Shown in pieces: positions 39,309 through 58,913 of a DNA stretch of 64,000 bases (within the stretch, counting starts at the first letter, position 1; the number at the start of each line of letters is the position of its first letter). Source of the DNA: an uncultured Chloroflexia bacterium (GTDB taxonomy: Bacteria; Chloroflexota; Limnocylindria; Limnocylindrales; CSP1-4); the NCBI GenBank assembly GCA_963764975.1, contig CAVXUF010000002.1, positions 467,809-531,808 of the forward strand, written 5' to 3'. A model generated the notes under the pieces. It saw only the letters and a program-made list of their open reading frames with translations. It made no database searches and was not told the origin of the DNA. Both the position numbers and the translations under genes were made by a program.

Positions 39309-39551
39309 ATGGGCAAGCGAGTCAAATGCGTTCTCCTGGCCACCTACACGAACGACAGCGGCGACCGGATGGAATGGGTACTGCCCGAAGTGTCGACGCC
39401 CGAAGTCGAGGTCATCGGGGCGTTCCTTCGCCACGCCTATCCAGGAGGTGGAGCGCTCGTGTCCGTCGTTCCCATCGAAGCGCTGAGCGACTTCACGGGT
39501 GGTTTCGATGGCGAGTTCGAGGCATTCCTAGCCCGCGCCTGGACGCGATAG
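39309..39551 (+). CDS. small hypothetical protein; its 3-prime end lies in direct repeat A
   Basis: 80 aa. The C-terminal coding part (...VVPIEALSDFTGGFDGEFEAF) recurs in frame at 58.83 kb. Confidence 0.35.
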   Translation: MGKRVKCVLLATYTNDSGDRMEWVLPEVSTPEVEVIGAFLRHAYPGGGALVSVVPIEALSDFTGGFDGEFEAFLARAWTR

Positions 39552-39710: not shown

Positions 39711-42700
39711 ATGCTGGCGGTCCCTTCGCATGAGGGGCCTCGATTTGGTCGCATTGGAGCGAACATGCGCGAGGGAACGAACGTGCGAGCGGCCTCCGGC
39801 TGGCCAGATCCGGGGCGAGAGGCCCTGACAATCCTCCGGGACCAGCTGGCGCCATTCGCGGAGGAGCATCTCTCGAGAGCCTACCCAGACTCGTATCGTC
39901 GAATCCTCGGGCTGGAGCGGCGTCCGGGAGCAACCATTGGGCAGGGTGGCCGCAAGGCCGTCGACGACCCCGACGAGCTCCTTGGCATCTTGTTGAACCA
40001 GCAGTACTGGTCCCGAGCTTTTGAGCCTGCGTTCGGTGGCGATACGAATGCCGCCTACCGGGTCAAGAACCTGTGCCGCGACATCCGCGAACTCCGAGCC
40101 GCGTTCGCGATGCACCAGCGCGATTTCACCCCCGCCGATGCGTGGCGGCTCGTGGATTCGACGATGAGGCTTCTCACCCTGCTTGACCTCCTCGATCAGA
40201 AGACCAAGGACTCGTTGGAGGAGATCCGACGAGAACTTCTGACGGCCAGCGAGAGCCCGGACACGGTTCGGCTGCGCCAGAAGCACCTTGCGCACGTCGC
40301 ATCGCGATTTGAATACGTCGATGTGGGGGCTATTGCGCCTTCGGTAGGTGGCGCTGTTGTACGTCTCAGGCTGGATGAAATCTACCGCTCCCCGCGGTTC
40401 GAGGCCATCAGCGTATCGATGGCACCCGTAGAGAGCGATGACACGGTTGTGGCACAGCCAGCTGGCACCCGGCCCCCGGAGACCGTTGGGCCAGCGGAAA
40501 TCCTCGGCGAGCGGCGCTTGTTGATCGTCGCCGGACCCGGCGCCGGCAAGAGCACGTTCATGCGATCCGTCGCTCGGGACCTCGCCCTTGGCCGAGACGT
40601 GCCGGGGATCGCCGCTGCACTCACGCCGATCCTGGTGGCCGCCAGTGCACTTGGAGAGGCGTTGGCCAATGGATCCGCGTCGTCGCTCGAGGACTACATC
40701 GAGACCCAACTCGCAGGCGATGCGGGACCTGCCCTGGGATCCGACATCCGCGCTGGTCGAGCGATGGTTCTGGTGGACGGTGTCGACGAGGTCGGTGCCC
40801 AGGGGGCTCAAATCAGAGTGGCCCAAGCTCTCGAACACTTCGGGGCGGCGCACCCCAGCGTCCGCATGGTTGTGTCCGCACGACCCATGGGCTACCGCGA
40901 AGTACGCCTTGGCGCAGACTTCACCGCATATCGGCTTTCGCCGCTCGGCTCGGGCGAGATCGAGGCGTTCATCGGCGGCTGGTTCGGGGCCGCCTTCCCG
41001 CAAGACGAGGCGGAGGCCAATCGGCGACGCAGCCTCGGCGTGAACGCGCTGATTTCCTCCTCAGCCGAGTTGCGCGACCTCGCGGGCACCCCCCTGTTGC
41101 TCACCGTGATCTGCCTGCTCGCGATGCGGGGAGGCACACTTCCTGAGCGCCGGGTGGAGCTCTTCAGGGTGGCAACGAACACCCTCCTGCATCAATGGCC
41201 AAGGACCCACGGATTCAATCTCGACGATTACGAGTTGCGGCTGCTCATGGGCAGGGTCGCCGCGAGAATTCTCGAGCGCCGTGAGCGCCTACTCCGGGCA
41301 TCGGAGCTCGAGGGGTTGCTCGAGAACGCGCTTGAGGACTTGCGCGGACTCGCCCGGCCCCAGGCCAGACAAGCGGCAGCAAGCATGTTGCGAATGATCG
41401 AGCAGCAGACCGGCTTCCTTGTCGAGCAAGGCGTCGACGCGGGTGAGCCGGTCTACGGATTCATCCATCGGAACTTCGCCGAATACCTGGCGGCGATTGA
41501 CCTGTTCGAGCGGCACGCCGCAGGCACGATCACCCTCAGCGACATCGTCTTCGATCCCCGCTATGGGGAGGCGATCCCCCTCTTCTTCCTACACGTGAGC
41601 GAGACCGGACTGGAGCTGTCATCCAGGCTCGTCGATGAAGTGCTGTCGCTTGACTCCCCGTTTCGAATCTATGCGTGCTTGGGCGAGCGTCTTGTCGTAG
41701 ACCTGTTGACCCAGGGCGTGCGCGTCAAGCCGATGGTGCGTGAGCGTGCTGTTCTGCTGGCAATTGAGGCGGCGATCTCTGTGAAGTCGTCGTATGTCGC
41801 GGACATGCTGATGACGGGACTCCACCGGCTGGCCACCGAAGACCGGCTCGGCCCCCAAGGCGACCTCCTGATGGAACGTATCGACGCGGCCCCATTCTCG
41901 CGAGGGAGACGGGCGCGGGTCGTATGGAAACTGCGGCCCGAGCCGTACACGGGCCCCGACGTGAGGTGGCTTCTCGACGAGGCGCGCGCCATCGCGGATG
42001 TCGAACCTGGCGAGGCGAACATGCTCCTGAAGCTCGCCTCAGCGGCCACCGGGTCGGAGGCTGCGGAGGTCGACGCTGCCCTGGATCGCCCCGCGGGAAC
42101 GCGGGCGGTGCTTCTCGCTTTTGCAACCGGCCCCGCCGCCACCGACCGGATTCCCATTACCGAGTCCCAGGCAGTTGGACTCGCCGACGCGGGGTTACTG
42201 CGATTATCGGCCGGGGACCTCGTCGCTCATCACGGCGTCCCACCTGGTTTTGATGCGGGGCCGTTCCTTCTGGACGTCGCGGATGTCGACCTCATTGACG
42301 TCGAAGGACTCTTGACACTCAACCAAGAGGGGCTCCCAATGTGGGTAGTCCTCCTGATCTCCGGACTGCGGTCATGGAGTCCGGCCGAGTCAGATGAAGC
42401 CGCAGCACGCTTCGTTCAGCTTCCTGAGCCGGCCGAAGACGCAACCGGATTCGCGCCCACCGTGCTGCTCGCGATCGTGGCCGCCGGGCGCATCGCCCAA
42501 CTGAGCGAGGCGGCGGAGATGCCGGACTGGCTACGGCGGGCGATCGATGCGGAGAATGCGGACGACGGCCTCGACATCGCGCTGGCTTTCCACTTTGTCG
42601 CCACGGCCGTGTCCACGGTCACGTCATGGGGCACTCCCCTGTTGGTGGGACTCCTAACGCATCGCGAGGGCTCCATCCGGAGGGGCGTGTGCCGGCGCAT

Positions 42701-43511
42701 CGGAGAGCGACAAGCCGAGGAAGCGTGGGCTAGCGGTCAGCATTTCCAGCTCGACGAGGATGTCCTGGTCGCGCTGGAGCTGCTCCGGGACGACCCAGAT
42801 CCCGAGGTCAGGAGCGAGGCTTGGCGCACCGCAGCCGTTCTTGGCACGATCCCGACCAAACTCGTGTCCGCGCTCGGCACGGGAGGTGCGACCGTGGAGC
42901 CCAAGGAACCAGTCACACTGCCCGTCTTCGCGGCCCTTGTCTGGTCGCTCATGGCGTCGGCCGCGCATTCGAAGCACGTAGCCGATGGGCACCTACTCGC
43001 GGGGCAGCTCGGTCAGCTGCTCGACTGGCGCGTAAAACCAGTTCCGACGCCCGACGACCTGTGGCGCTTCTGGCCTGGGGCGATCGAACACCATCGACTG
43101 CCGACTGAGGTCCGGGATTCCGCATGGTCCCGAACCGACAGTGCTGATCCCGCGACCAGAGCTTGGGCAGCGGCGTCGTGGGCAACCTGCCTTCGCGGCT
43201 CCGACGGAAGAAACCAAGTCGAGATCCTTCTCAGTGACACTGACCCGTCTGTGAGCCTGGCGGGACTCGTAGGCATGCAGTCGCCCGACATCGGTGATGC
43301 CCTATGGATCCCAGCAGCTGTTGAGCCTCTGCTTCGGGCCGACATCGACATATGGGAGTTCATCATCGGGCCCGCCGGGATTGACATGTCTCCGGAGTAC
43401 CACCGTGAGCTCGGCCGAACGCTTTTGCGCGCATTGGACACTGCGGCAACGACCGAGAACAACTTCGATCTGCTTTGGTCATTTGCGATCGAGTCCTACT
43501 CCAGCCCTTAG
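39711..43511 (+). CDS. STAND-class (NACHT-like) NTPase with N-terminal helical domain and C-terminal HEAT/ARM-like repeats
   Basis: Walker A LLIVAGPGAGKSTF and Walker B MVLVDGVDEV, followed by about 800 aa of helical repeats including DPDPEVRSEAWRTAAVLG (HEAT-like). The N-terminal about 270 aa are uncharacterised (R-x4-H at RLRQKH). An alternative start at ATG 39765 is possible. Confidence 0.65.
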   Translation: MLAVPSHEGPRFGRIGANMREGTNVRAASGWPDPGREALTILRDQLAPFAEEHLSRAYPDSYRRILGLERRPGATIGQGGRKAVDDPDELLGILLNQQYWSRAFEPAFGGDTNAAYRVKNLCRDIRELRAAFAMHQRDFTPADAWRLVDSTMRLLTLLDLLDQKTKDSLEEIRRELLTASESPDTVRLRQKHLAHVASRFEYVDVGAIAPSVGGAVVRLRLDEIYRSPRFEAISVSMAPVESDDTVVAQPAGTRPPETVGPAEILGERRLLIVAGPGAGKSTFMRSVARDLALGRDVPGIAAALTPILVAASALGEALANGSASSLEDYIETQLAGDAGPALGSDIRAGRAMVLVDGVDEVGAQGAQIRVAQALEHFGAAHPSVRMVVSARPMGYREVRLGADFTAYRLSPLGSGEIEAFIGGWFGAAFPQDEAEANRRRSLGVNALISSSAELRDLAGTPLLLTVICLLAMRGGTLPERRVELFRVATNTLLHQWPRTHGFNLDDYELRLLMGRVAARILERRERLLRASELEGLLENALEDLRGLARPQARQAAASMLRMIEQQTGFLVEQGVDAGEPVYGFIHRNFAEYLAAIDLFERHAAGTITLSDIVFDPRYGEAIPLFFLHVSETGLELSSRLVDEVLSLDSPFRIYACLGERLVVDLLTQGVRVKPMVRERAVLLAIEAAISVKSSYVADMLMTGLHRLATEDRLGPQGDLLMERIDAAPFSRGRRARVVWKLRPEPYTGPDVRWLLDEARAIADVEPGEANMLLKLASAATGSEAAEVDAALDRPAGTRAVLLAFATGPAATDRIPITESQAVGLADAGLLRLSAGDLVAHHGVPPGFDAGPFLLDVADVDLIDVEGLLTLNQEGLPMWVVLLISGLRSWSPAESDEAAARFVQLPEPAEDATGFAPTVLLAIVAAGRIAQLSEAAEMPDWLRRAIDAENADDGLDIALAFHFVATAVSTVTSWGTPLLVGLLTHREGSIRRGVCRRIGERQAEEAWASGQHFQLDEDVLVALELLRDDPDPEVRSEAWRTAAVLGTIPTKLVSALGTGGATVEPKEPVTLPVFAALVWSLMASAAHSKHVADGHLLAGQLGQLLDWRVKPVPTPDDLWRFWPGAIEHHRLPTEVRDSAWSRTDSADPATRAWAAASWATCLRGSDGRNQVEILLSDTDPSVSLAGLVGMQSPDIGDALWIPAAVEPLLRADIDIWEFIIGPAGIDMSPEYHRELGRTLLRALDTAATTENNFDLLWSFAIESYSSP

Positions 43512-43600: not shown

Positions 43601-44908
43601 CTAGCCGAGAATCTCGCCGTCGGCCCTGCCGAAGCTCACCCGCGTCCCGGCCGCCAGCTGGAGGGCCTTACCCGGCTCGACCTCCCGTTGGACCCCGGCA
43701 GTTGAACTCGTCCATGCCTGCTGGGTGAGGTTCCGTAGGCCCCACCTAGAGGGGTCCGACGGGTGGCGGGTGACCTCCGCGACCGGGTTGCGGTAGTCGA
43801 GCCCCGCGGTCTCGTCCAAGTGGTGCGCGTAGAGCTGTGCATCGTGGTTGAGGACGACCAGAGACTTCCCGACCCGGATCCGCATGGGGAGCACTAGCGG
43901 CCGCGCACACTTCCAGCATGACCCCGGCGAGCCGTCCTGCCGGCTCGGGTCGTAGAAGTTCTCGGCGCCGCACGAGCAATAGACGATCGAATCACGGAGT
44001 CGCGCCATCGCCGCGCGCCAAACCGACTCGCGGACCCTGCCGTGGGCGAAGTCCCTCAGCCCGACGGTGAAGGACTGCGTGAACAGGTCGCGCAGGAATG
44101 CCGGGTAGATCGGCCAGAAGGCGATCGCGTTGTCCTGGTACCCGGCCACCGGCTCGTTCGAGGCGTCCTGCGGGTCGAAGATGAACAGCGGGTCCGTGCC
44201 GTACAGGCGAGTCATGGCGGGGAGGTCGAAACAGTGGATGCTCGCCTCCCGGCGGCCCTCAAGCGGGTGGTGGTTGACCAGGAGCAGGAACAGCAGAACA
44301 GCGAGTGAGAATAGGTCCGTCTGGGTCGACGGCAGGGCTTCGCCGCGCACAACCTCGGGGGCCATGAAGCGCGGCGTGCCCAGGACGCCGCCCTTGGCTT
44401 GGTCCAGGCCGACATTGTCGTTGTCGCAGATGAGGACGTCGCCCGTGGCCGGGTCAAAGAAGACGTTCCCATGGGAAATGTCGCGGTAGCAGAGCCCGCG
44501 CGCATGCAGCTGGTAGAAACCGTCGGCGAGAAAGGCTCCAGCCGTGGCGAGGCTGCGGAATGATGGCGACACGCGTCGACTCAGCAGGTCGGGAATGCCC
44601 TTGTAATTGGGCGGGCGAAGGGCCATCAGGTACCCGAAACTCGGGTTCCCCGGAATGGTGGCGAGAGCCACGGGCCACAGGAAGCGCTCGGCTGGGGAGC
44701 CGGCATCAACGAGTGTCTTCAATGCGGCTCGCTGGTCAGCCGTCGCCGTCTGGGCGTAGTACCACTTTAGGGCGAACTTGGATCCACCCAGAGATACCTC
44801 ATAGACCTCCCCCTGGCCTCCGGCGCCCAAAAGGCGCTCCACGCGTCCGGCAGGTCCACCCGGAGAAGCCCGGAACTCCTCGCCCTTGCCGAGAACGCTC
44901 GAAGCCAT
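43601..44908 (-). CDS. Ser/Thr protein kinase with C-terminal FHA-like domain
   Basis: Gly-loop LGAGGQGEVYEV, VAIK-like FALKW, catalytic YRDISHGNVF and DNDNVG (DFG-like). The C-terminal ...VLNHDAQLYAHHLD...ALQLAAGTRVSFGRADGEI resembles an FHA core. The start is set at ATG 44908. Confidence 0.6.
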   Translation of the reverse strand: MASSVLGKGEEFRASPGGPAGRVERLLGAGGQGEVYEVSLGGSKFALKWYYAQTATADQRAALKTLVDAGSPAERFLWPVALATIPGNPSFGYLMALRPPNYKGIPDLLSRRVSPSFRSLATAGAFLADGFYQLHARGLCYRDISHGNVFFDPATGDVLICDNDNVGLDQAKGGVLGTPRFMAPEVVRGEALPSTQTDLFSLAVLLFLLLVNHHPLEGRREASIHCFDLPAMTRLYGTDPLFIFDPQDASNEPVAGYQDNAIAFWPIYPAFLRDLFTQSFTVGLRDFAHGRVRESVWRAAMARLRDSIVYCSCGAENFYDPSRQDGSPGSCWKCARPLVLPMRIRVGKSLVVLNHDAQLYAHHLDETAGLDYRNPVAEVTRHPSDPSRWGLRNLTQQAWTSSTAGVQREVEPGKALQLAAGTRVSFGRADGEILG

Positions 44909-44980
44909 TACATCCTCCCTCGGGCGCCTGCCACGTGCGCCGGAACGGCCAACGCGGAAGGATCTACCACGACCCAATCG

Positions 44981-45898
44981 TCACAGCGATCGAGCCTCCG
45001 CCTCCTCGGCGGATTGTCGAGTCACCGGCGGCGCGGGGGACCACAATAGTCCCAACGAAATGTCATCACCGCTTCCTGAAGCGGTGAGTTCCTCGAGCCA
45101 GCCGGGCACGCGCGAAACAACTTCGTCGAAACCGTCCTGCTGGATCAGGCTGGCGATGTCGGTTGCGAACCGAAGCATGCCTGTGTCGTCGACAAATGAG
45201 TTGACGAGTCCATCGGTTGACAGGAGGACGAGGGGCATGTGCTCGCGAAGGAGAGCCACCCGGAACAGACTCCAAGCGTCTTTCGAGCAGAGCGATGTGG
45301 TCTCGTTTGCGATGAGTCGGTCATCAGAAGGGATCGGTCTCGAGACCTTCCCGTCTGCTGAGACGCTTACAAGGTCCCCGTCGCCGACCTGCCAGGAGGC
45401 AAGAAACTCGGTTGTCGCGACTGCTGTCACAAGGGTCGTGCCATAGGCCACGTATGGATCGAGGTTTAGCGCATCAACGCTCCCTTCGCGGGTGCGCACT
45501 CCATCAAGCTCGACATCTGTGAATGGATTCGCCGCCAGATCGTCGTCTACCGCCTTTCGCCAGTCGCGGACCAACCGCCTTGGCAGGTCTTCGGTCAACC
45601 TTCCCCGGAGCATCCCTGGGCTGGCCGCCGCGATATCAATCTCGAGCAACTCGCCCGCCAGTGACATTGCGACCTGGTTGGCGAGGCGGGAGCCGTCTGC
45701 GCTACGGAATGACCGGGCGCTGCCGTGGCCGTCCGCCACGGAGAGCGCTACTGAGGAGCCATGCCCCACGCTAGGTAGCCATGCGATGGCATCCTGGTTC
45801 GGCATCCCACTCCGAATGTGAGATGCGCCCCTTACTGAAGCGCCCGATACACGCCAGCCACCACTATTCGGAGCTGCCCTCTCCGTCGGGCTGGCCAT
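44981..45898 (-). CDS. PP2C-family Ser/Thr phosphatase
   Basis: GASVRGASHIRSGMPNQDA..., VADGHGS, and the conserved Asp-rich C-terminal motifs (LSTDGL). The start is set at ATG 45898. Confidence 0.65.
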   Translation of the reverse strand: MASPTERAAPNSGGWRVSGASVRGASHIRSGMPNQDAIAWLPSVGHGSSVALSVADGHGSARSFRSADGSRLANQVAMSLAGELLEIDIAAASPGMLRGRLTEDLPRRLVRDWRKAVDDDLAANPFTDVELDGVRTREGSVDALNLDPYVAYGTTLVTAVATTEFLASWQVGDGDLVSVSADGKVSRPIPSDDRLIANETTSLCSKDAWSLFRVALLREHMPLVLLSTDGLVNSFVDDTGMLRFATDIASLIQQDGFDEVVSRVPGWLEELTASGSGDDISLGLLWSPAPPVTRQSAEEAEARSL

Positions 45899-45902
45899 CC
45901 GA

Positions 45903-46607
45903 TTACCAGACGAAGTCGACGTCTGTGGAGTCATCCGGGGCGACGGGTATTGGGACGTTGCCGCCAACTTGCGCGTCGTCTACGGCGCGGCTGGCAGGCG
46001 AGGATGCCGCCTTGAGCACGGCCGTCGAAGCCCACTTGATGTAAGTCACGAGGGCGGGCGCGTTCTTCGCCAGAAGGGGCTTCAGTTCCCCCGTGCCGAT
46101 GAACTTCGACAAGACGTCCAGATCAGCATCGCCCCCAACGGCGATCCCGATTCGAACGGCTCGCTTGCCCCAAGGCTCAGACATGAGCCGCTGGAGTCCC
46201 CCGCCGAAGTCGTCGGTCGGCTGCCCGTCGCTGATCAGCACGAGGACCGGCGGGAGAGATCTGTCGGGCATCGGTGGGGTCTGGAGTTGCTCAGCAACGA
46301 GTTCCATGGCGTGACCCATGTCCGTGACTCCCCCCGCAGTCACGTTGGTCCACTTGAAGTCCTCGATCGAAATGGGCGTTGCGACATGCCACCTCGCGCC
46401 ATCCGAGAAGGTCACGACCCGCACCAGGACCTCCGCATTGGGGTTCTCCCGGGCTGTGTCCAGCATCGCCGGGATCGCCTCGTGGATCGCGAAGTTGAGC
46501 ATGCCGATCTTCTCGCCATCCATGGAACCTGATGTGTCGAGAATCCAGATGAAGTGCAAGGGCCGAGTTGCAATCGGCCCTCCGGGCAAAGCGCTCATGA
46601 CGCGCAT
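45903..46607 (-). CDS. von Willebrand factor A (vWA) domain protein
   Basis: MIDAS motif FIWILDTSGSMDG...T...D. Confidence 0.75.
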   Translation of the reverse strand: MRVMSALPGGPIATRPLHFIWILDTSGSMDGEKIGMLNFAIHEAIPAMLDTARENPNAEVLVRVVTFSDGARWHVATPISIEDFKWTNVTAGGVTDMGHAMELVAEQLQTPPMPDRSLPPVLVLISDGQPTDDFGGGLQRLMSEPWGKRAVRIGIAVGGDADLDVLSKFIGTGELKPLLAKNAPALVTYIKWASTAVLKAASSPASRAVDDAQVGGNVPIPVAPDDSTDVDFVW

Positions 46608-46744: not shown

Positions 46745-49318
46745 GTGAACGACTCCGTCTCGGCGGTCTTGACCGCGATCCTCGATAGGTACGGCAGGGA
46801 GGTCTCATTCGACCCGCCTCGGGTAGAAGGCCTCCTGCGGGACTTGGCCGGCCAGCACAAGCGCGAGATCGCCGTCCTAGTCGTGGCGTGTCGGGCTGGC
46901 GTCCCCGGGGCACTGATTGGTGCGGCAAGTTCCGAGGAAGCCGACCTGCTCGCAAACCGCCTCGCAGCCCAGCTCGAACGAGACCTTGGATTGGCGCAGG
47001 GTCCATCGGCCTGGGCCGTAACAACATGGGCGGCGGCCCTCGGCGTTGAGGTTGGGCCATCTCTCAAGGCGGCCGCGATAGATCCGTCGACACCGGTGCC
47101 TGCGGTTGACCCCACAGTGGGCTCCACCCCTGCATCCCCCTCCCCCGTGAACTGGACGAACGTACCGCCGCCTGTGCCCGTGCTACTGCCCGACTGGCGA
47201 GCGGCCCTCGCCGCAATCGCCATTCGCTGGCGAACGGCCCTCGACGCAATCGCCGTTCGTTGGCCAGCTTGGAAGGCGAACGCTCGCGTAGCGGCGGGCA
47301 ACGTCCCACGCCGAGGGTGGGCGATCGGCGGTGGGGCGCTCGCTCTTGTCATCGTGGTGCTTGCCCTGTCGAGACCGTCGCCGCCGTCGAGTTCAGCGGC
47401 CAATCTAGCGGTCAGCCCAACCGCTCGACCAACTCCGACGAGCACCATCGTGCCGCCAACGCCGTCCAATGAGCCGTCGTTGACGACCGCCCCAACCGAC
47501 ACGGCCACCGGCTCGACCCCCGCTCCGACGCCGACGCCGTCCGCGGCGGCCTTTTCCGCGTGCCCGACGCCCGGCGCGCCGGGCAAGGCGTTCTCGGTCA
47601 CGACAGGGCTGGCGTACTCGGGCACCTCGGGGATGGGGGCTGTCGAAGTCGTGGTCCTCGGCCCGGGCGGGTCCCGGACTGGCGTGTACACGGAGGTCCA
47701 CAAGGCGAAGGCCGACGTGCTTGGCAAGCCGATCGTCGGCGACCGGGTGGCCAATGCGAACTCCGACTCTAGCGGCGCTGCCCTGATGGAGGTCAAGCCC
47801 GGCACGTACTCAGTGACCACGGACCTGCCTGGCTACAACTGGGGAGACCTGCAGGACGGCAAGGGGCAGAGCGGGATCACCGTCAGGTCCGGACGCAGGA
47901 CCCGCGTGACCATCAGCCTGGGTTCGATCACCTTCGTCCCGACGAAGGTCGACGGCGTCATCACAGGCAAATACGCCGAGATCCACCTGCAGAAGACCGA
48001 CAGCCAGGGCGGCGTCGTCACCGGCGATCGCGTGGGGGACGGCAACACCGACAACACGGGCGCGTTGACGATCCTCGTGACGCCCGGCTCCTACGTCCTC
48101 ACCTCGGACTTCGACGGCCACAACTGGGGCGACCTGTCCGACGGCAAGGGCTGCTCGGGCGTCAGCGTGGGCCCGAGGGACGATACCAAGGTCGAGCTCC
48201 CGCTCGGCCGCCTCCGGGTCGCGATTCCCGCGGGCAAGTACGCCGAGGTACACCTCGGCACAGCGGCGGCGCCGGGTGACCGCGTCGCGTCCGGGAACGC
48301 CGACAACACCGGCTACTGGGCCACCGACCTCGTTCCCGGCGCGTACGTCCTCGTCGTCGACGACCACGCCAGCGAGGTGACCGTCGAGGCCGGCCAGGTC
48401 ACCGACACGGCCACCGGCTCGACCCCCGCTCCGACGCCGACGCCGTCCGCGGCGGCCTTTTCCGCGTGCCCGACGCCCGGCGCGCCGGGCAAGGCGTTCT
48501 CGGTCACGACAGGGCTGGCGTACTCGGGCACCTCGGGGATGGGGGCTGTCGAAGTCGTGGTCCTCGGCCCGGGCGGGTCCCGGACTGGCGTGTACACGGA
48601 GGTCCACAAGGCGAAGGCCGACGTGCTTGGCAAGCCGATCGTCGGCGACCGGGTGGCCAATGCGAACTCCGACTCTAGCGGCGCTGCCCTGATGGAGGTC
48701 AAGCCCGGCACGTACTCAGTGACCACGGACCTGCCTGGCTACAACTGGGGAGACCTGCAGGACGGCAAGGGGCAGAGCGGGATCACCGTCAGGTCCGGAC
48801 GCAGGACCCGCGTGACCATCAGCCTGGGTTCGATCACCTTCGTCCCGACGAAGGTCGACGGCGTCATCACAGGCAAATACGCCGAGATCCACCTGCAGAA
48901 GACCGACAGCCAGGGCGGCGTCGTCACCGGCGATCGCGTGGGGGACGGCAACACCGACAACACGGGCGCGTTGACGATCCTTGTGACGCCCGGCTCCTAC
49001 GTCCTCACCTCGGACTTCGACGGCCACAACTGGGGCGACCTGTCCGACGGCAAGGGCTGCTCGGGCGTCAGCGTGGGCCCGAGGGACGATACCAAGGTCG
49101 AGCTCCCGCTCGGCCGCCTCCGGGTCGCGATTCCCGCGGGCAAGTACGCCGAGGTACACCTCGGCACAGCGGCGGCGCCGGGTGACCGCGTCGCGTCCGG
49201 GAACGCCGACAACACCGGCTACTGGGCCACCGACCTCGTTCCCGGCGCGTACGTCCTCGTCGTCGACGACCACGCCAGCGAGGTGACCGTCGAGGCCGGC
49301 CAGGTCACCGACAGCTAG
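46745..49318 (+). CDS. membrane protein: conserved N-terminal helical module + Pro/Thr linker + TM helix + six carboxypeptidase-regulatory/Ig-like extracellular repeats
   Basis: The N-terminal about 100 aa are shared with three other ORFs. TM helix GWAIGGGALALVIVVLALS. Repeated about 100-aa units have G-V-D...G...TD.TG...V.PG.Y. The gene contains a perfect 906-bp tandem duplication. Confidence 0.55.
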   Translation: MNDSVSAVLTAILDRYGREVSFDPPRVEGLLRDLAGQHKREIAVLVVACRAGVPGALIGAASSEEADLLANRLAAQLERDLGLAQGPSAWAVTTWAAALGVEVGPSLKAAAIDPSTPVPAVDPTVGSTPASPSPVNWTNVPPPVPVLLPDWRAALAAIAIRWRTALDAIAVRWPAWKANARVAAGNVPRRGWAIGGGALALVIVVLALSRPSPPSSSAANLAVSPTARPTPTSTIVPPTPSNEPSLTTAPTDTATGSTPAPTPTPSAAAFSACPTPGAPGKAFSVTTGLAYSGTSGMGAVEVVVLGPGGSRTGVYTEVHKAKADVLGKPIVGDRVANANSDSSGAALMEVKPGTYSVTTDLPGYNWGDLQDGKGQSGITVRSGRRTRVTISLGSITFVPTKVDGVITGKYAEIHLQKTDSQGGVVTGDRVGDGNTDNTGALTILVTPGSYVLTSDFDGHNWGDLSDGKGCSGVSVGPRDDTKVELPLGRLRVAIPAGKYAEVHLGTAAAPGDRVASGNADNTGYWATDLVPGAYVLVVDDHASEVTVEAGQVTDTATGSTPAPTPTPSAAAFSACPTPGAPGKAFSVTTGLAYSGTSGMGAVEVVVLGPGGSRTGVYTEVHKAKADVLGKPIVGDRVANANSDSSGAALMEVKPGTYSVTTDLPGYNWGDLQDGKGQSGITVRSGRRTRVTISLGSITFVPTKVDGVITGKYAEIHLQKTDSQGGVVTGDRVGDGNTDNTGALTILVTPGSYVLTSDFDGHNWGDLSDGKGCSGVSVGPRDDTKVELPLGRLRVAIPAGKYAEVHLGTAAAPGDRVASGNADNTGYWATDLVPGAYVLVVDDHASEVTVEAGQVTDS
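47495..49313. repeat. perfect tandem duplication, 906-bp unit x 2 (302 codons, in frame) inside the 46745..49318 gene
   Basis: Identical ORF translations are offset by exactly 906 bp (for example 47560..47772 = 48466..48678). Copy 1 is 47495-48400 and copy 2 is 48401-49306. Confidence 0.85.
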
Positions 49319-51084: not shown

Positions 51085-53598
51085 GTCACTTCCCTTTCTG
51101 TAGCTGCTTGACGATTGTCCACCGCGTCAGGCTGTCGTCGCCCTCTGAGCCGCGTTGCGATCCTCGCCCACGTTTCCGAGTCTGGCAGTTCATAAGGCTT
51201 GAACTTCACCGGTCGATGGGCACGGACATCGTCTTTGAAGAGTGCCCGCTCAGCCCCGAGGCGACCGGCTGCCGGGATCTGGAGATAGGCGTTCGACTCA
51301 GAATCTGGCATCGGCAGGGCGACGCGCAACCCGAAGGCCAGGGTGGCCTGCCTCTGGACAAGACGCTCGAGGTTCGTGAAGACGGCCGACCATGCGAATA
51401 TGTGAACGCCAACACCCGGCCCATCGTTCACCACGTCTAGGAATGCCGCGGCAGCTCCGGCGGCCTTGCCAAACCGATCCGTCTCTCGCAAGGCGTCGAG
51501 CCTGTCAAGGCCCGGGATGACCACGATCTTCGAGCGCCCTGCCGCGCCGGTCCTTCGGCTGGCGACAACCTCGGCCAGGTCGCCGAACAGGTCGCCGACT
51601 CCTGACATGGGCAGTGTCGCCACCTCGTGCGGCACAGTCTGGCCGAGCTCGTCGAAGATCTTGCTCCATGCGTGACCTCCCGTGCTCGCCTGCACAATGG
51701 CCAGGTCCAGCTCGTCGACGCCGCCGTCTGCGCACGCGCCGATAAGCGCCGAGCACAAGATCGCATGGGCAAGGCGCTCATCTTGCCCAGCGATCAGAAG
51801 ATTCTCCCTTGGCATCCTGGCGAGAGTCGCGGCGAGGTGTGGGCCGATCTCGATAGGCTCGCCGAGCCAGAGGCGGGCGCCATCGATTCCGTACCCAGAG
51901 TCGCTGGCAAGAGACTTCCCGAGGTCTACGTTCTCGCGAAGTCGCGCGGGGGCGCTGGAGGAGAAGACGTATGGTGCCCAGGATCGCGCGGCGCCGGCCT
52001 TTCCTAGCTGCCGAATCTGAGCGATCCGCTGTCGCCGTTCCTCCGGTTCAAGCATGGCCACCCGCAACATGACATTGCGGGTGGCATCTCCACCGGCGTC
52101 GTTGTACACGGCCTCGCCCGACTTCTCGAGCGACGCAGCAGCCGCGTTGTTGTCGCCCAGGATGAGGCGAGCGTCGGCATCAGCGATGGACAGGGCGATA
52201 CGGAGGCTCACGGAGATTCATGGCCGAGCGGTTGCTGGTGAAACTGCTCGCTGGTGTCTGGCTGCTCAGAAGCACGTGGATACCGAAGCCCCGCCCGCGC
52301 TTGATGAGGTCGGCGAGCTGCGTGGTCGCCGCGGCCGTCAGGGTCGGATCGCCCCCGTCGCCGAACAGGATCTGATACTCGTCGAGGACCAGGAGCACGC
52401 GCGCCATCGGCTGGCCCGTCGAAGCCCGGTAGGCCTTGATCGTCTGTGTCTGAGCCTGCCGGAAGAGCACCCCGCGACGCGCCAGCTCCTGCCCGATCGC
52501 GTTGAGAACGCTCAGACCCTGCTCGGGATCGCTTTCCAGGCCGATGGCGCGGGCGTGCGGGAGCCCTCCGCGCGCATAGTCCTGAAACTCGACTCCTTCC
52601 TTGAAGTCGAGCAGGTAGACCTCCAATTCATCTGGGGAGTAGGCGGCCGCCAACTGGACCAGTAGTACATGAAGGAGGTTGGTCTTGCCCGAACCCGGGA
52701 GACCACCGATGAGTCCGTGGTGCACGAGGCCCGAGCCGATGACGAATTCGTGGGGCTGACCTCTGGCGTCCGTGCCGATGACGGCCCGAAGCCCATCGCT
52801 TGAGTCCGATTTCCACAACTGGTCTGGCGGGATCGCCACCCTCGCAAACGGGACCGTCTCGTCGGCCTGGGCGTCAGCTCCGTGCCCGGCGACGTCAAGC
52901 AGACGATCCAGCACGGCATCGCTTGGCGACTCATCCAGGCGCACGCGATATCGGCCCAAGTCCGGCTCGTTCCAGGAAGCCATCCCTCCACTGTCAACCC
53001 GCAGCGTCCAACATCTTGCCGATGCCGCCGCGAGGTCGAGAGACCGAGGCAGCTGACCACCGGTCTGGTGCACGGTCGCGAGGACGATCGTTCCAGTGCG
53101 AGGCCCATTCTCTATAAGTCGGAACAGCGACGCCGCGGACGTCTCAGAGAAGCCCGCCGGGTAACCGACGACCGCCACAAACTCGTACCTAACGCGCTGC
53201 ACGCCGGGTTTCCGGTTGTGGTCCTCGATCGATGCGCTGTTCAGCAGCTGGTTTTGCGTCACTGCCTCAACGTGGGACAGAAGGCGGCTGAGCTCGGACT
53301 CCAGCTCACGTGCGTCCGAGTAGACCTTGTCGCGACGAACTTGGGTGGGCAGGCGTAGGTAGGTCTTCAAATTCTGGCCAAGGCCCGCGGGGTCAATCAG
53401 GGTCAGCCGGTAACTCCCCGGCGGCACAGTCCCCACGATCCGAGCGAGGACGCTCTTGAGCGACTGGGCGGCGAAATCGGAAGCATTGGCGTCGGCAAGC
53501 CAAAGGATGGGCCGGCTCGCAAACAGCGGCAGGAGCGCCGGTGCAGGCGACCCGACCCGGGGCACATCTATGGCGCCGACGCGGATCGAAGCCGGCAA
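51081..53598 (-). pseudogene. FtsK/SpoIIIE-family (EccCb/EssC-like) ATPase, frameshifted around 52180-52211 and apparently 5-prime truncated
   Basis: ORF 52180..53598 has Walker A GLIGGLPGSGKT and Walker B VLLVLDEYQ. ORF 51081..52211 continues the same domain in another frame (SLRIALSIADADARLILG, equivalent to the FtsK RIAF...DSRTIL region), then a degenerate third domain. The upstream frame is open to about 53874 but has no start other than TTG 53598. Confidence 0.55.
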
Positions 53599-54114: not shown

Positions 54115-55653
54115 TCAGGGCATGCCGTTGTTCGTCCACCACGTCGTGAGGGCCTTGATCGAGTAGCCCTTCTTGGCGTTCAGCACGCCGTACACCAGTC
54201 TCCGCTCATCGGTCCACCGGATGGCTGCGTTCCCATCGAGCTTCTTCAGGTAGCAGATGGCGCGCCCGCCCGCCCAGGCCGTTTCCCCAGTACCACCGGC
54301 AATACAGGAACCCGAGTCCTGTTCGACGCCAGACTGCGCAGCGATTGTCTTTGATCGGAACGCATACCACGCAGATAGGGCTTCGGTGCTTGTGAACTGG
54401 AAGAAGGCGATGTCCTCCAGCTTTGAGGTCGGGTTCGCGCAATCGATCACGGCGACGTCCCCAACAGGGTCGTTGACGCTCTCGTCCTTCGCATGATCGA
54501 CCGTGGGGTCATTGGGGCTACACGCTGCGCGCCATGCCGGTGCCGCCAGCTCAAGGAGAGCCTGCTGTTCGGGCGACATTAGTGGCCCGTCGCCGGACTC
54601 GAGATAGAGCGTGTGGTTCCACCAAAGATCGACAACCGACGCAAGTGATGTGGCCGTCGAGCCGGACGCGGTACCGACGACGCTCGACCGCGAGTCGAGC
54701 CACGACACGCGTGCCGGCTGCCCTGCTGCGCACGAGACGCGCCCGTAGGAATACTCGACTTCGCCGGGCTGCCCGTTCCAGCAGCCAGCCGTGCCGACGG
54801 CCACGCCGGCCGCGGACTGCAGGGTTTCGTAGCGGGCCTGTGCCTTTGTGGCGTCCGGGAAAAGCTCAATGACGAAGGCGACGTGAGACTTCGAGCATCT
54901 GACCGCGACCACAGCACTTTCGGCTACGTCCGTCGCATCGCCAGGCGCTACCGGGACACAATCGGCGGGTCCCATTCGGGCTGACAGGGCGCTCATCAAA
55001 GTCGCGACAAGAGCTGGCGCTCGGGATGAAGAGGGGGTTGCGACGGCCACCTCGCCGGGCGCGCCTGAGGAGGGTGCCGCCGCTGCGCTGCCACCACCCG
55101 AGGACGTAGGCGGAGATCCGTTTGCCGAACTCGGAGCAGCCTGCGGGCGGATCGTGACAGCAGCCAAGATCGCGACTATCGCGATCGATGCGCCGACCGG
55201 GACGACGAGCCGTCGTGACGGCCGGCGTGGTTCATCCGTTGTAGCAGTCGTGGAGTTTGCGCCGGCGACACTCGCGACACGCGCAGCTGAGACATGGGAC
55301 GGCTCCGCGGTCAGCGAGGAGGAGGGCAGCGTACGGGCGTTGAATGACGTGTCGATCCCAAGCGCCGCGGCCCATGCCCCGACGGCCCAGCTGGCGGGAC
55401 CTGGAGCTATGCCCTCAGCATCTTCGAGCCTGCCCGACAGGGCTGGCACAAGGACGTGGATTTCGGCTCCGGAAGCCTCGAGTAAAGCGCGAGGAATGCC
55501 CTCTCGAGCTGCCGCTACCAGGACCGCAACTTCCTTGCGGTGCCCGGTGGCGAGGTCGCGGAGGAGAGCCTCGAGTCGACGAGGATCGTCTGACACCTCT
55601 GTCCCGAAACGCTCCACTAGGATTGCTAGGACATCTGTGGCCGCATCGTTCAC
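54115..55653 (-). CDS. membrane protein: conserved N-terminal helical module + TM helix + duplicated Cys-containing extracellular domain
   Basis: N-terminal MNDAATDVLAILVERFGTEVSDDPRRLEALLRDL... is paralogous to the 46745, 56036 and 57409 genes. TM helix VPVGASIAIVAILAAVTI. Confidence 0.5.
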   Translation of the reverse strand: MNDAATDVLAILVERFGTEVSDDPRRLEALLRDLATGHRKEVAVLVAAAREGIPRALLEASGAEIHVLVPALSGRLEDAEGIAPGPASWAVGAWAAALGIDTSFNARTLPSSSLTAEPSHVSAARVASVAGANSTTATTDEPRRPSRRLVVPVGASIAIVAILAAVTIRPQAAPSSANGSPPTSSGGGSAAAAPSSGAPGEVAVATPSSSRAPALVATLMSALSARMGPADCVPVAPGDATDVAESAVVAVRCSKSHVAFVIELFPDATKAQARYETLQSAAGVAVGTAGCWNGQPGEVEYSYGRVSCAAGQPARVSWLDSRSSVVGTASGSTATSLASVVDLWWNHTLYLESGDGPLMSPEQQALLELAAPAWRAACSPNDPTVDHAKDESVNDPVGDVAVIDCANPTSKLEDIAFFQFTSTEALSAWYAFRSKTIAAQSGVEQDSGSCIAGGTGETAWAGGRAICYLKKLDGNAAIRWTDERRLVYGVLNAKKGYSIKALTTWWTNNGMP

Positions 55654-56035
55654 CCATCCCTCCGGTCAACCGGGCACCCGGCGGGTGCGACGACCGGGGG
55701 CTCCTGCCGCACGGCGATCTGGCAACCCTTCAGGATTGTCCGAGATTATGCCACCGCGGAGTGTCATCGTGACATGGCCTCGTGGCCCGACCGCTAGCCA
55801 CACCACCTGACGTCTTCGGACTGTGACTTGCCGCAGCCGTTGGTTCCATGCGCTCCAATTCAGCTTGGTCCGCGCCGAAGGTAGGAAGGTTCCACCCGCG
55901 TCGACAGCCGCCAACTTGCCCGACATCATCATGCGCAGGGCTGACGCGAAGTCATTCGGCCGGACCTCCAGCAGCAGCCCCGCAGTGATGACTCCATGGG
56001 GGCGGCAGCAGCTTGTGCTCCCTTGGGAATCCGAC

Positions 56036-56848
56036 TCAGGCGGCGATGATCTGCAACGGTACCGCTGTCACTGTGCCCTCTTGGATCAGCCAACCCGACA
56101 ATCCCGGCACAGGCGCCAATGTCGCGAAAATGCGAAGGGCATCGGGGTAATGGTGGAGACTGATGTCCATGGAGCTGGGTCGGGACCAGGTTCCTATCGG
56201 ATCAGTTGAGTAGATGGCCCAGAACACCTCATCCCGATCGTCTATTTCGATCGACGCGGCTAGCAGAATTTCGGGATCAATTTCAAAACGGCTCGGGCTC
56301 ATGGCCCTATTCCTTGACGGGTAGATGCGCGTCGCGATTCCACCCGTCTGGTATGGAGCATTGCCGATGACCAAGCCACACGCGGCGTTGGGGAACGCCT
56401 GTCTTCCCGCATCGAGAATTGCTTGGGCAAGGTGTCCGGGAAGGTAAGCCGCCCCCACGGCAATGGACCTTGAGGCTGTTTGGTCCGAGTGGCCGCCCTT
56501 CGAGTCTGCTGGCGCGGGTGTCAGGCTCGCGGGCCCCCCAACGAAATCTAGGCCGAGGGCAAAGGCCCATGTGTCGATCGCCCAGCTGGCCGGTTGCTCG
56601 GCAACTCCTGCCTCATCCCGCAGACGTCGCGTGAGCCGCGCGATGAGAAGCCGATCTCCCCGGCCACCCGCCATCGTGAATTCCGCCACCACGCCTTGCC
56701 GAACTGCGGTGACGAGAACCGCTATCTCGAGCCGGTCCCTGCCAGACAAATCCCGCAGAATCGCCTCGACGAGGCGCGGGTTATTGACGAAGTCCGTCCC
56801 GCGGTCGACAACGATCCTTCGCAGGACTTCCCGGACCTCGTCGTTCAT
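56036..56848 (-). CDS. conserved N-terminal helical module fused to a JAB/MPN (Mec+/JAMM-like) domain with substituted metal ligands
   Basis: ACGLVIGN...RIYPSRNRAMSPSRFEIDPE...VFWAIYSTDP....PSSMD aligns with the JAMM core (..YHSHP...S-x2-D), with H replaced by S and H replaced by D. The start is ATG 56848 (MNDEVREVL). Confidence 0.5.
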   Translation of the reverse strand: MNDEVREVLRRIVVDRGTDFVNNPRLVEAILRDLSGRDRLEIAVLVTAVRQGVVAEFTMAGGRGDRLLIARLTRRLRDEAGVAEQPASWAIDTWAFALGLDFVGGPASLTPAPADSKGGHSDQTASRSIAVGAAYLPGHLAQAILDAGRQAFPNAACGLVIGNAPYQTGGIATRIYPSRNRAMSPSRFEIDPEILLAASIEIDDRDEVFWAIYSTDPIGTWSRPSSMDISLHHYPDALRIFATLAPVPGLSGWLIQEGTVTAVPLQIIAA

Positions 56849-57083
56849 CTTCGCGATGCCCGAGAGCGAGTCAGTTCGTGCGCCGTCGATGCGAGTTGCC
56901 GAAGTTTGGGGTCGGATCGAGGCATCGGGAGGGCGGCCAACGAGGGGCACCAGGCTGCCAGGCTGTCGACTGGGCAAGATGACGACGAAGATGCCGGTTG
57001 CGGCGTGCTCGGCCTAAAGCCACTCGTTTCGAAACGGGCCACGTCTCGCCCGAGCAAGCGTCGTCGAGGGAAGCACCGCACCG

Positions 57084-57377
57084 TCACTTCTGCTTGATCT
57101 CGCGCTTGATCGGAACGCAATACTGGTCGACGCGAACGGTGTTGCGACGGAAGCCCACAACCTGGAAGCTGATGCGATTCTCGCGAAGTAGCCCTGATTC
57201 ACTCGTATCGCAATCGGCAACCCAGCCATCACGCCTGCGATCGATTAGTTCCTTCTCCACCTCAAGGTGGATGTCACTTGCGGCCAGAAACAGCGCCGTG
57301 GCCGCATCCCGACCCCCGTAGTCGGTCTGCAATCGCTTGAGGATGGTGCCGTATTCCCAGAAGTTCTCCCGTTCCAT
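57084..57377 (-). CDS. small hypothetical protein in a lower-GC patch
   Basis: 97 aa (MERENFWEYGTILKRLQ...). Local GC is noticeably below its surroundings. It sits immediately downstream of 57409..58485. Confidence 0.4.
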   Translation of the reverse strand: MERENFWEYGTILKRLQTDYGGRDAATALFLAASDIHLEVEKELIDRRRDGWVADCDTSESGLLRENRISFQVVGFRRNTVRVDQYCVPIKREIKQK

Positions 57378-57408
57378 CGGCGAACACTCCTACGCCATGT
57401 CTCACAAC

Positions 57409-58485
57409 CTACTTCTTCTTGAAGTCAACCATGCTCGCAAGCGAGCGCCCATACTTTTCGAGCCGCTCGAACCGAGATGCCCCAAGGCGACCGATCAGCA
57501 ACTGGCGCTCTTGATCCGCAATCTGATATCCGCGTCGAACAAGGACGAGCTTGGTCATCAGTGAATCCAGAAGCCGGTCCTCGAGCTTGGCTTCGAGCAT
57601 GGGCGATCCGAGGACTCTCTGGACCTTCGCTGGGCTCATCACGTCGCAGAAGCCGAGCAGCTGTCCCAAGCCGCCCATGCAGTAGGCCGCCAGGTCACCG
57701 GTGATGAGCTCGCCATCGCGGTAACGCGCCCACCGCGAGAGTCTGAAGTACTCGGCGACCATCTCGATGTCGGCGTAGGCAGAAAGCAGCTCGCGGTCTT
57801 CGGCCGTGAGCATCTCCCACGACGATGCGTTGGAGTAAAGGTTGCTGAACAGTCTCTTTGCGATTGCCTCGGCCTCGTCGGTGACCTCGGCGCGCGCGGC
57901 GGTCCGGAGTGTCTCGAACTCGGCCTCGAGGCCAGGCGGATAGGAGGCCGACGGCTTAGCGATCGGCGGTTGAGCGCCCGCAGTCGCGGGTGGCTGGCGC
58001 ATTCCGGCCACGCTTTCCGCGGCTCCAGCAGCCACGCCGCACCGCACGCAGAACCGAGCTCTGGCCGGGAGTGGTGCCCCGCACTGTGAACAGAAGGCTG
58101 CGTCGCCCGATGGACCGCCGGCCGAGGCCGGAGCAGGGGGCGCAGAGGCATCGGCTATCGCGCCGGGACCCGCCGCAGAAACGGGGATGCCCAACGCCTG
58201 ACCCCACGAACGTACCGCCCAGACTGCGGCCTCATTCGTAAGGGCGTAATGCTCCTCGAGGCGACTCGCGAGCGCCGCAACGAAGACGCCGCCGGCATTG
58301 GCCGAGCGCGCCGCGAGGTCGGTCGGGATGCCGGCCCGGGCCGCTGTCACTAGGACGGAGATTTCGCGGCGATGCTCGCTGGCTAGGTCCCGCAGCAGAC
58401 CCTCCAGGCGGGGCGGGTCGTCACCGATCTCACGTCCGTAGCGGGAGACGATGGTGCCGAGGACACCTACGATGGCGGCGTTCAT
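57409..58485 (-). CDS. conserved N-terminal helical module + zinc-ribbon (CSQCG...CVRCG) + uncharacterised C-terminal domain
   Basis: N-terminal MNAAIVGVLGTIVSRYGREIGDDPPRLEGLLRDL... is paralogous. It has two CxxC pairs. Confidence 0.5.
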   Translation of the reverse strand: MNAAIVGVLGTIVSRYGREIGDDPPRLEGLLRDLASEHRREISVLVTAARAGIPTDLAARSANAGGVFVAALASRLEEHYALTNEAAVWAVRSWGQALGIPVSAAGPGAIADASAPPAPASAGGPSGDAAFCSQCGAPLPARARFCVRCGVAAGAAESVAGMRQPPATAGAQPPIAKPSASYPPGLEAEFETLRTAARAEVTDEAEAIAKRLFSNLYSNASSWEMLTAEDRELLSAYADIEMVAEYFRLSRWARYRDGELITGDLAAYCMGGLGQLLGFCDVMSPAKVQRVLGSPMLEAKLEDRLLDSLMTKLVLVRRGYQIADQERQLLIGRLGASRFERLEKYGRSLASMVDFKKK

Positions 58486-58827: not shown

Positions 58828-58913
58828 CCGTCGTACACATCGAGGCGCTGAGCGACTTCACGGTGGTTTCGATGGCACCGCGCTCACGCCGTGCGGCAAT
58901 CAGGACATCGGTC
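58828..58913. repeat. direct repeat copy B, homologous to 39463..39594
   Basis: See copy A. The inter-block spacer is 16 bp here versus 61 bp in A. Confidence 0.7.

Follow-up and report, generated by a model that had tools for sequence, protein, structure and literature searches.

We found two almost identical 906-bp units lying head to tail within one gene of a Chloroflexota-like bacterium, and they probably represent a genuine and very recent in-frame tandem duplication, by which a single-pass membrane protein had its entire ectodomain cassette doubled. That repeat proteins grow by recent in-frame duplication of domain modules is textbook knowledge, and as an event of a known kind this one matters little on its own. 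It is a clean and fresh example from a poorly known phylum, in which the founding 7-bp microhomology is still visible, and it would, if real, present a receptor-type ectodomain captured at the moment of its doubling.

Anatomy of the repeat and its junctions

A repeat scan of the window, i.e., of the whole 64-kb stretch of DNA that was analysed, revealed a direct repeat spaced by 906 nt, the first base of which is 47495. Since 906 bp exceeds the longest period of TRF (500), the exact extent was taken from direct comparison at an offset of 906, where the sequence is identical across 47495-48075 and 48077-48407. This delimits two head-to-tail units with zero intervening sequence (Table 1), and the shared heptamer ACCGACA adds 7 bp past copy 2, which reproduces the extent of 47495-49313 given in a preliminary description of this DNA. 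That description had called the copies 100% identical; the two units stand as described, but they differ by one C/T mismatch (905/906), which is synonymous (CTC versus CTT, both Leu) and leaves the 302-aa products identical. Chance cannot be the source of this identity. As 906 equals 3 x 302, the repeat is in frame with the open reading frame 46745-49318, and translation and domain mapping bore out the earlier count of 302 residues and three repeats per copy. The 64-kb window holds no other long repeats and no runs of N.

Table 1. Coordinates of the duplicated gene, its parts and neighbouring genes within the window.
Feature	Position	Strand	Basis or remark
Whole gene, 857 aa counted from first GTG	46745-49318	+	ORF list, translation, GC3, alignment of relatives
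N-terminal ~103-aa conserved domain, presumably cytoplasmic	46745-47053	+	tblastn, phmmer
Older small in-frame tandem repeat, 33 bp x 2.2, 30/33 identical	47194-47264	+	TRF
Predicted single TM helix, residues 191-209	47315-47371	+	Hydropathy scan
Pro/Thr/Ser/Ala-rich linker, residues 214-281	47384-47587	+	Left duplication breakpoint inside
Copy 1 of the 906-bp unit	47495-48400	+	Repeat scan, offset comparison, domain mapping
ACCGACA, left-edge microhomology	47495-47501	+	
Copy 1, domain 1	47588-47917	+	Preceded by 31-aa linker
Copy 1, domain 2	47918-48202	+	
Copy 1, domain 3	48203-48400	+	
Only difference between the copies	48076 C (T at 48982)	+	Offset comparison
Copy 2 of the 906-bp unit	48401-49306	+	Parts of copy 1 shifted by +906
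ACCGACA, novel junction (copy 1 end/copy 2 start)	48401-48407	+	
ACCGACA, right-edge microhomology	49307-49313	+	Then GC and TAG stop, 49316-49318
Kinase-PP2C-vWA triad, divergently transcribed	43601-46607	-	Pfam, translation
Ser/Thr kinase, zinc ribbon (CxC...CxxC) and beta-rich tail	43601-44977	-	Pfam, translation
PP2C	44981-45967	-	Pfam
vWA	45903-46607	-	Pfam
Three further N-domain genes	54115-58485	-	tblastn
N-domain, TM, other ectodomain	54115-55653	-	
N-domain and JAB-like	56036-56848	-	
N-domain and zinc ribbon	57409-58485	-	

The heptamer ACCGACA begins at all three boundaries (47495, 48401 and 49307), and its presence at both edges and at the junction is, as far as sequence can tell, the mark left by short direct repeats that have undergone illegitimate recombination or slippage. 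At a random junction, a microhomology of at least 7 nt would be expected with a chance of about 1.3e-4. In the reconstructed single-copy gene the heptamer occurs four times, and the total of such 7-mer pairs in that gene is 291. The in-frame status of the duplication is weak evidence, because 63% of the gene's 7-mer repeat pairs are in phase.

From this scar we infer an ancestral gene that would have encoded the N-terminal domain, the transmembrane (TM) helix, the Pro/Thr linker, three CnaB/transthyretin-like domains and a final 'TDS' before the stop, with one ACCGACA inside the linker (47495) and a second one 906 nt further on, shortly ahead of the stop codon. The interval was probably duplicated by RecA-independent illegitimate recombination, with the two heptamers serving as sites of replication slippage, template switching or unequal sister-strand exchange. 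The same codon phase of both heptamers and a breakpoint in a flexible linker would have allowed a well-formed protein in which two identical modules, each a linker plus three domains, follow one another, and one synonymous C-to-T change would have followed, although an error of consensus or polishing, not a mutation, could underlie this SNP. The likely effect is that a module for binding or sensing outside the cytoplasm has doubled in length and valency; in relatives this module forms the ectodomain of transmembrane Ser/Thr kinases. The 906-bp near-identity could furthermore serve as a substrate for RecA-dependent homologous gain or loss of units.

In Salmonella chemostat cultures, duplications that arose spontaneously have been documented to carry short direct repeats at their junctions (PMC3411829); in that study 7 bp was the detection cut-off and duplications were experimentally verified only at microhomologies of at least 11 bp. 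The duplication described here shares with them the head-to-tail copies and the short direct repeat, here of 7 bp, that marks the junction and either end, but it is intragenic, in frame and fixed in the assembly consensus, and its mechanism is read from the scar only.

Protein architecture and fold of the repeated domains

The encoded protein consists of an all-alpha N-terminal domain, one TM helix, a Pro/Thr linker and two modules, each with a linker and three beta-sandwich domains; 9 nt separate copy 2 from the stop codon. The public gene call (P0001) begins at GTG 47450, 235 codons too late, and thereby omits the N-terminal domain and the TM helix, whereas relatives can be aligned through both regions, which argues for the upstream start. 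GC3 is 0.86 gene-wide and 0.92 inside the repeat and hence identifies the plus frame as the coding frame; antisense open reading frames within the repeat (e.g. 47810-48607) were rejected as genes, since their high GC3 mirrors this frame. Both the late public gene start and the copy number deserve the attention of genome curators. No sigma-70-like promoter or intrinsic terminator was matched around the gene, no tRNA or Rfam family in the 64-kb window, and neither NCBIfam nor PADLOC returned anything for the duplicated-module gene. The older 33-bp repeat upstream of the TM helix encodes WRAALAAIAIR/WRTALDAIAVR.

Three Lys/Arg residues flank the TM helix on its N-terminal side and none follow it, and an N-in/C-out topology is therefore predicted. 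In the sense of this single-pass topology the earlier term 'surface-repeat protein' is right; the protein has no signal peptide, S-layer features or LPXTG sorting signal (no LP.[TSA]G motif; the stop lies 3 codons past the last domain).

Each unit comprises a Pro/Thr-rich linker of ~31 aa and three beta-sandwich domains (110, 95 and 66 aa) that are homologous to one another. The full protein matches the Pfam family CarboxypepD_reg (PF13620) with 47 bits (cut-off 32.3), a single module alone scores 29.7 bits, under this cut-off, and 30 of 81 relatives match the family (best 1.6e-19). While AF2, run on the whole module as a single sequence, reached a pLDDT of only 34, the fold could be read from a domain-level model of domain 2 (31-sequence alignment; pLDDT 90.9), which has 7 strands. 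Foldseek placed this model closest to GBS52 pilin, TIE, CnaB2 and transthyretin, and also matched UafA and BcpA, with a probability of 1.00 and TM scores of 0.58-0.66 to 3phs, 6fwv, 8bdw and transthyretins. A search of PDB sequences with the domain profile gave one marginal match, the TIE collagen-adhesin protein (E 0.0066), and the fold assignment therefore rests on Pfam and Foldseek. According to these matches, the repeated domains are CnaB/transthyretin-like beta-sandwiches, closest to CnaB-type pilin and adhesin domains and to transthyretin; the label 'Ig-like' used before holds only loosely.

Tandem extracellular beta-sandwich domains of a CnaB/prealbumin-like fold are shared with Cna, CnaB-repeat MSCRAMMs and pilins. 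In Cna of Staphylococcus aureus, the B-repeat units, each of several domains, recur as wholes, in a number that varies from strain to strain (PMC5080380). Unlike Cna, our protein has no signal peptide, ligand-binding A region or LPXTG motif, has an N-terminal TM helix as its anchor, and comes from a Chloroflexota-like bacterium and not from a Firmicute. Its N-terminus is a conserved helical domain followed by the TM helix, the repeats make up the whole ectodomain, and nothing lies distal to them where an MSCRAMM-type ligand-binding region would be sought.

Homologues and the origin of the duplication

A search of 5.8e9 proteins returned only the record from the same assembly (P0001) and relatives of at most 63% identity, with no single-copy or other allele of the gene among them; GTDB species representatives contained no relative at all, and a metagenome scan yielded relatives of at most 56% identity. 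The near relatives P0002 (61-63% identity), P0003 and P0004 stop 3-7 residues past one module and share a '...GQVTD' C-terminus behind this single three-domain module, an arrangement also seen in most of the 94 homologues. Three domains are present in 70 of 94 homologues, the module is C-terminal in 66 of 67 (tail of 0-12 aa), and only 3 of 94 family members carry a module duplication. As all close relatives end after one three-domain module, the 906-bp event appears to be lineage-specific and recent. A Pkinase domain precedes the module in 22 of 81 relatives, and transmembrane Ser/Thr kinases such as P0004 and P0016-P0020 resemble our protein in the order of TM helix, linker and three-domain module at the extreme C-terminus; our protein differs in having no kinase domain, but the ~103-aa N-terminal domain and two modules instead.

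Two further family members from one distant lineage, L006 (Ga0194126_10063162, 938 aa) and P0015, contain a duplication of a four-domain module (2 x 4). They are only ~23-33% identical to our protein and share with it the domain family and the tandem duplication of a whole multi-domain module behind a TM helix and a PT-rich linker, but their modules have four domains and their copies have diverged (67% identity between the halves of L006, 87.5% for P0015), so these events are older or have been homogenised. Since they carry an independent, older duplication, module duplications seem to survive in this family, which would, if these duplications are real, grow by whole-module steps and not by single domains.

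The claim that the duplication is very recent is thus upheld by one synonymous difference in 906 bp, by the single-module relatives and by the 7-bp junction microhomology. An artefact of assembly or a wrong copy number, whereby the organism would have one unit or more than two and the repeat was mis-resolved or strain variants were mixed, is unlikely but has points in its favour: near-perfect tandem repeats are a classic site of assembly error, the genome is from an uncultured lineage and probably from a strain-heterogeneous metagenome, the C/T difference could reflect two strain alleles, and the databases searched hold no independent record of the gene. A single-copy template, however, gives no reason for an in-phase join at a 7-bp microhomology (P ~1e-4), the SNP tells the copies apart, the window is free of other long repeats and N gaps, and with a de Bruijn assembler a repeat of 906 bp would come out collapsed and not expanded. 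The array furthermore lies mid-contig in a parent contig of 2,140,877 bp and the closest genomes, Limnocylindria-like Chloroflexota MAGs, come from Nanopore long reads, so single reads probably spanned the 1.8-kb array. Distinctly less probable is an older duplication held near-identical by gene conversion (concerted evolution). The halves of P0015 and L006 (87.5% and 67%) are more alike than the orthologues (62%), which would fit homogenisation, and GC-biased conversion could produce the raised GC3 of the repeat (0.92 versus 0.71 upstream), which is missing in single-module relatives. The former pattern is equally explained by independent duplications, though, and to keep 906 bp 99.9% identical, all synonymous sites included, conversion would have to be very frequent; the nearest relatives are all single-module, and the founding microhomology is intact at the outer edges and the junction, with identity ending exactly there.

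The suggestion of active expansion and contraction, with antigenic or stalk-length variation, found no support here. A programmed or selected contingency locus, at which, as in the repeat adhesins of Gram-positive bacteria, high-frequency changes of module number vary antigenicity or surface length, could draw on the CnaB fold, known from adhesins with strain-dependent B-repeat number (PMC5080380), on the second, small in-frame tandem repeat in the same gene and on the location in a low-GC island rich in conflict-type genes. We nevertheless regard it as most unlikely, as the locus combines only two copies with a 906-bp unit instead of many copies of a short SSR-type unit, duplication occurs in so few family members, and the repeats, being the entire ectodomain, have no distal ligand-binding domain to project and no sorting signal.

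The N-terminal domain, gene neighbourhood and GC3 step

The duplicated gene sits in a low-GC island rich in conflict-type genes. According to tblastn, four genes of the window start with the ~103-aa N-terminal domain (N-domain), at 41-50% identity, and phmmer found it at residues 1-100 of many proteins. In relatives it is likewise N-terminal and fused to FGE-sulfatase, TPR, WD40, beta-helix, GUN4 or Zn ribbon domains. No Pfam family covers it in the window proteins or in 68 relatives. One small non-enzymatic terminal domain on several nearby proteins recalls the EAD-coupled conflict systems (Kaur et al. 2020, PMC7159879); a Pfam search matched the N-domain to no described EAD family, and tblastn, which finds four genes only, detected it neither in the HEPN-NACHT, AAA, FtsK, kinase, PP2C and vWA genes of the window nor fused to a core component of an NTPase system (VMAP, iSTAND, GAP1, Ubl).

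[quoted passage not shown] No GAP1-N2 GTPase was identified in the window, and NCBIfam and PADLOC gave only generic kinase, helicase or FtsK matches for the neighbours. Two genes of ~1,270-1,295 aa that follow a 60-74-nt repeat were considered as paralogues and rejected after comparison.

Near the left breakpoint GC3 rises sharply, from 0.71 to 0.92, a step that a simple duplication leaves unexplained. Raised GC3 as a general property of the module was rejected, as single-module relatives show no step. A speculative and very unlikely reading would have the module as an exchangeable ectodomain cassette, which recently recombined from a core-genome receptor-kinase paralogue, leaving the GC3 step, and is now amplifying, while the ~103-aa N-domain is an adaptor that couples membrane and soluble partners on four proteins to the kinase-PP2C-vWA triad. 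If true, the sensing end of an undescribed signalling or conflict system would diversify by cassette capture and duplication. The occurrence of four N-domain genes beside such a triad is probably more interesting than the duplication itself.

The duplicated ectodomain unit

The window gene, whose coding frame is clear from its GC content by codon position (0.66/0.57/0.86), encodes a membrane protein with a duplicated 906-bp ectodomain unit. A repeat search of the window returned a direct repeat starting at 47495 with a spacing of 906 nt, and in the offset-906 self-comparison 47495-48075 and 48077-48407 were identical to the sequence 906 nt further on. Two complete units lie head to tail, as the preliminary description had it, and are followed by seven more bases common to both, which reproduces its end coordinate of 49313. 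The repeat was called perfect there, but the units differ in one base, C at 48076 and T at 48982. This sole mismatch, at a third codon position, is synonymous (Leu, CTC/CTT); the two products are thus identical and comprise the 302 residues originally reported. Runs of N are absent from the window, and its single long repeat is the 906-bp array, which lies outside the range of TRF (longest period 500).

The public protein record of this gene (P0001, NCBI/ENA; 622 aa, 100% identical, parent contig 2,140,877 bp) begins at GTG 47450, inside the ORF, and thereby leaves out the N-terminal domain (N-domain) and the transmembrane (TM) helix. We regard the 857-aa ORF as the better gene model, supported by the upstream open frame and by relatives whose alignments cover the TM helix and continue N-terminal to it. 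The Lys/Arg bias around this helix indicates an N-in/C-out topology; no LPXTG-like motif was found in the protein. A shorter tandem repeat in the cytoplasmic juxtamembrane segment encodes WRAALAAIAIR/WRTALDAIAVR and is older than the 906-bp duplication.

Features of the window gene, its duplication and its surroundings (window positions)
Feature	Position	Strand	Description
Window gene	46745-49318	+	ORF, 857 aa from first GTG
N-domain	residues 1-103		conserved, helical
N-domain copy, window gene	46745-47053	+	tblastn; rest of gene TM and CnaB-like modules
Second tandem repeat	47194-47264 (residues 150-171)		33 bp x 2.2 (11 aa x 2), 30/33 identical, in frame (TRF)
TM helix	residues 191-209		single hydrophobic helix; 3 K/R before, 0 after
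Linker	C-terminal to TM helix		Pro/Thr/Ser/Ala-rich
Ectodomain			2 x (31-aa linker + beta-sandwich domains of 110, 95 and 66 aa)
Unit 1	47495-48400	+	offset-906 self-comparison
Unit 2	48401-49306	+	offset-906 self-comparison
Left edge			...CGCCCCA/ACCGACA/CGGCC...
Junction			...CCAGGTC/ACCGACA/CGGCC...
Right edge			...CCAGGTC/ACCGACA/GCTAG...
C-terminal end			TDS, then stop codon
TniQ	27662-29167		low-GC part
Mu-transposase-like gene	30260-33193		low-GC part
AAA ATPase	34857-36236		low-GC part
NERD/UvrD-like helicase	36899-39112		low-GC part
HEPN_Swt1-NACHT	39711-43511		low-GC part
vWA, PP2C, Ser/Thr kinase triad	43601-46607	-	divergent from window gene; kinase: zinc ribbon, beta-rich tail
FtsK/SpoIIIE-like ATPase	52180-53598		low-GC part
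Gene with N-domain at 55345-55653	54115-55653	-	TM helix and different, Cys-containing ectodomain
Gene with N-domain at 56540-56848	56036-56848	-	JAB-like domain
Gene with N-domain at 58177-58485	57409-58485	-	zinc ribbon

Origin and age of the duplication

The presence of ACCGACA at both edges and at the junction implies an ancestral gene with two such heptamers, spaced by 906 nt and sharing one codon phase. The first would have lain in the linker and the second two codons ahead of the stop, and the whole stretch between them would have been copied. Domain boundaries were kept intact, since the left breakpoint falls within the linker and the right breakpoint at the C-terminus. Microhomology of at least 7 nt at a random junction has a probability of ~1.3e-4. 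The reconstructed single-copy gene contains ACCGACA four times, and of its 291 identical 7-mer pairs 63% share the codon phase; substrates were thus plentiful and the in-frame outcome is unremarkable. Spontaneous RecA-independent rearrangements in bacteria are known to be marked by short direct repeats at duplication junctions (PMC3411829), as with ACCGACA here. As assembled, the window gene carries a cleanly delimited and very young tandem duplication, probably mediated by microhomology, that repeats one whole ectodomain module in frame; it is a fresh instance of a well-known type of event.

A word-indexed search of 5.8e9 proteins matched only the same assembly and three relatives (38-63% identity), each with one module and ending 3-7 residues past '...GQ(V/L)T(D/E)'. 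Exhaustive phmmer searching of 1.84e9 representatives yielded 2,075 relatives, 54 at E<=1e-30. By domain HMM, 70 of 94 module-bearing sequences have three domains and eight have four, one diverged protein has seven, the window protein six, and two distant family members eight (protein P0015 and locus L006, Ga0194126_10063162, 125-2941). The module occupies the extreme C-terminus in 66 of 67 three-domain proteins. This single C-terminal module in the relatives marks the two-module state as derived and unique among near relatives, which, together with one synonymous difference between the units, supports the very recent duplication proposed at the outset. In L006 and P0015, both arranged as 2 x 4 domains, the halves are 67% and 87.5% identical, respectively, and the two proteins 62% identical to each other. 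Halves more alike than orthologues point to either independent duplication or homogenisation (concerted evolution); whichever holds, the family has repeatedly undergone, and tolerates, the duplication of whole modules.

An assembly artefact or a wrong copy number, as the preliminary description had cautioned, appears unlikely: a phased 7-bp microhomology is nothing that assembly software should be expected to generate, the 48076/48982 difference tells the copies apart, and the array lies mid-contig in a 2.14-Mb parent contig. A housekeeping gene at 18424-19665 is 84-89% identical to genes of 'Candidatus Limnocylindrales' and uncultured Chloroflexia MAGs, many of which belong to the Microflora Danica set, for which deep Nanopore sequencing was assembled using Flye and Medaka (PMC12313526). 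If the source is such a Nanopore-type MAG, as these matches suggest, the 1.8-kb array would be covered end to end by individual reads. The duplication might also be read as an active antigenic or length-variation locus, as was likewise put forward, but we found no support for this beyond analogy.

The GC3 of the window gene, ~0.71 over codons 20-240, steps up sharply to 0.92 within codons 230-250 (47435-47495), coinciding with or slightly preceding the left breakpoint (codon 251), and remains elevated as far as the stop codon; the single-module relatives lack this step. GC3 is 0.68-0.78 in neighbouring island genes versus 0.85-0.90 in the core part of the window. The ectodomain could have recombined in from a core-genome paralogue (mosaic origin), or the step could reflect GC-biased conversion on a recombining repeat.

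Fold and possible role of the module

The three repeats per copy noted initially are indeed three mutually alignable domains, but their fold is of the CnaB/transthyretin type. Pfam CarboxypepD_reg (cut-off 32.3 bits) matched the full protein with 47 bits and 30 of 81 relatives (best E-value 1.6e-19), whereas a single module by itself stayed below the cut-off at 29.7 bits; among the relatives SpaA, MG4 and Big_1 were also matched. The AlphaFold model of domain 2 (31-sequence alignment; pLDDT 90.9) is confident, has seven strands and, among solved structures, comes closest to transthyretin and to CnaB-type domains from the pilins and adhesins of Gram-positive bacteria (GBS52, TIE, CnaB2, UafA, BcpA). 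On these matches, 'Ig-like' fits only in a loose sense. The CnaB fold has been likened to the IgG fold, to which it is nevertheless inverse (PMC5080380).

In 22 of the 81 relatives the TM-linker-module unit forms the ectodomain of a Ser/Thr kinase, an architecture suggesting that the module is probably a binding or sensing unit rather than a passive stalk. No part of the window protein lies distal to it, and the kinase position is taken by the ~103-aa N-domain.

The putative genomic island and the N-domain family

G+C is 0.62-0.67 over 20-64 kb versus 0.69-0.73 over 1-20 kb, and with its transposition, HEPN-NACHT, NERD/UvrD-like and FtsK-like genes the 20-64 kb part resembles a mobile element or a defence island; no tRNA was found in the window. 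A ~74-nt segment occurs at 39439-39512 and 58804-58876 (86% identity, 19.4 kb apart), each time preceding a gene of ~1,270-1,295 aa by a few hundred nt; these two genes are not paralogous. The kinase-PP2C-vWA triad corresponds to a neighbourhood theme that Kaur et al. 2020 (PMC7159879) reported for GAP1-N2 systems, but the window showed no recognisable GTPase of the GAP1 type. We consider the triad and the N-domain neighbourhood a more promising lead than the duplication itself.

The N-domain opens four genes within 12 kb (tblastn, 41-50% identity). No Pfam model matched it in the window proteins or in 68 database relatives, where it again forms the N-terminus, joined to FGE-sulfatase, TPR, WD40, beta-helix, GUN4 or zinc ribbon domains. 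This fits the adaptor-like architectural logic of 'effector-associated domains' (EADs; Kaur et al. 2020). However, the N-domain was found on no core NTPase of the window and fits none of the described EAD models, and we therefore do not claim EAD membership. At the database locus Ga0307373_10060173 (L002), two adjacent genes (287-1822 and 2023-2634) both open with the N-domain, fused to right-handed beta-helix repeats in one and to a double zinc ribbon in the other.
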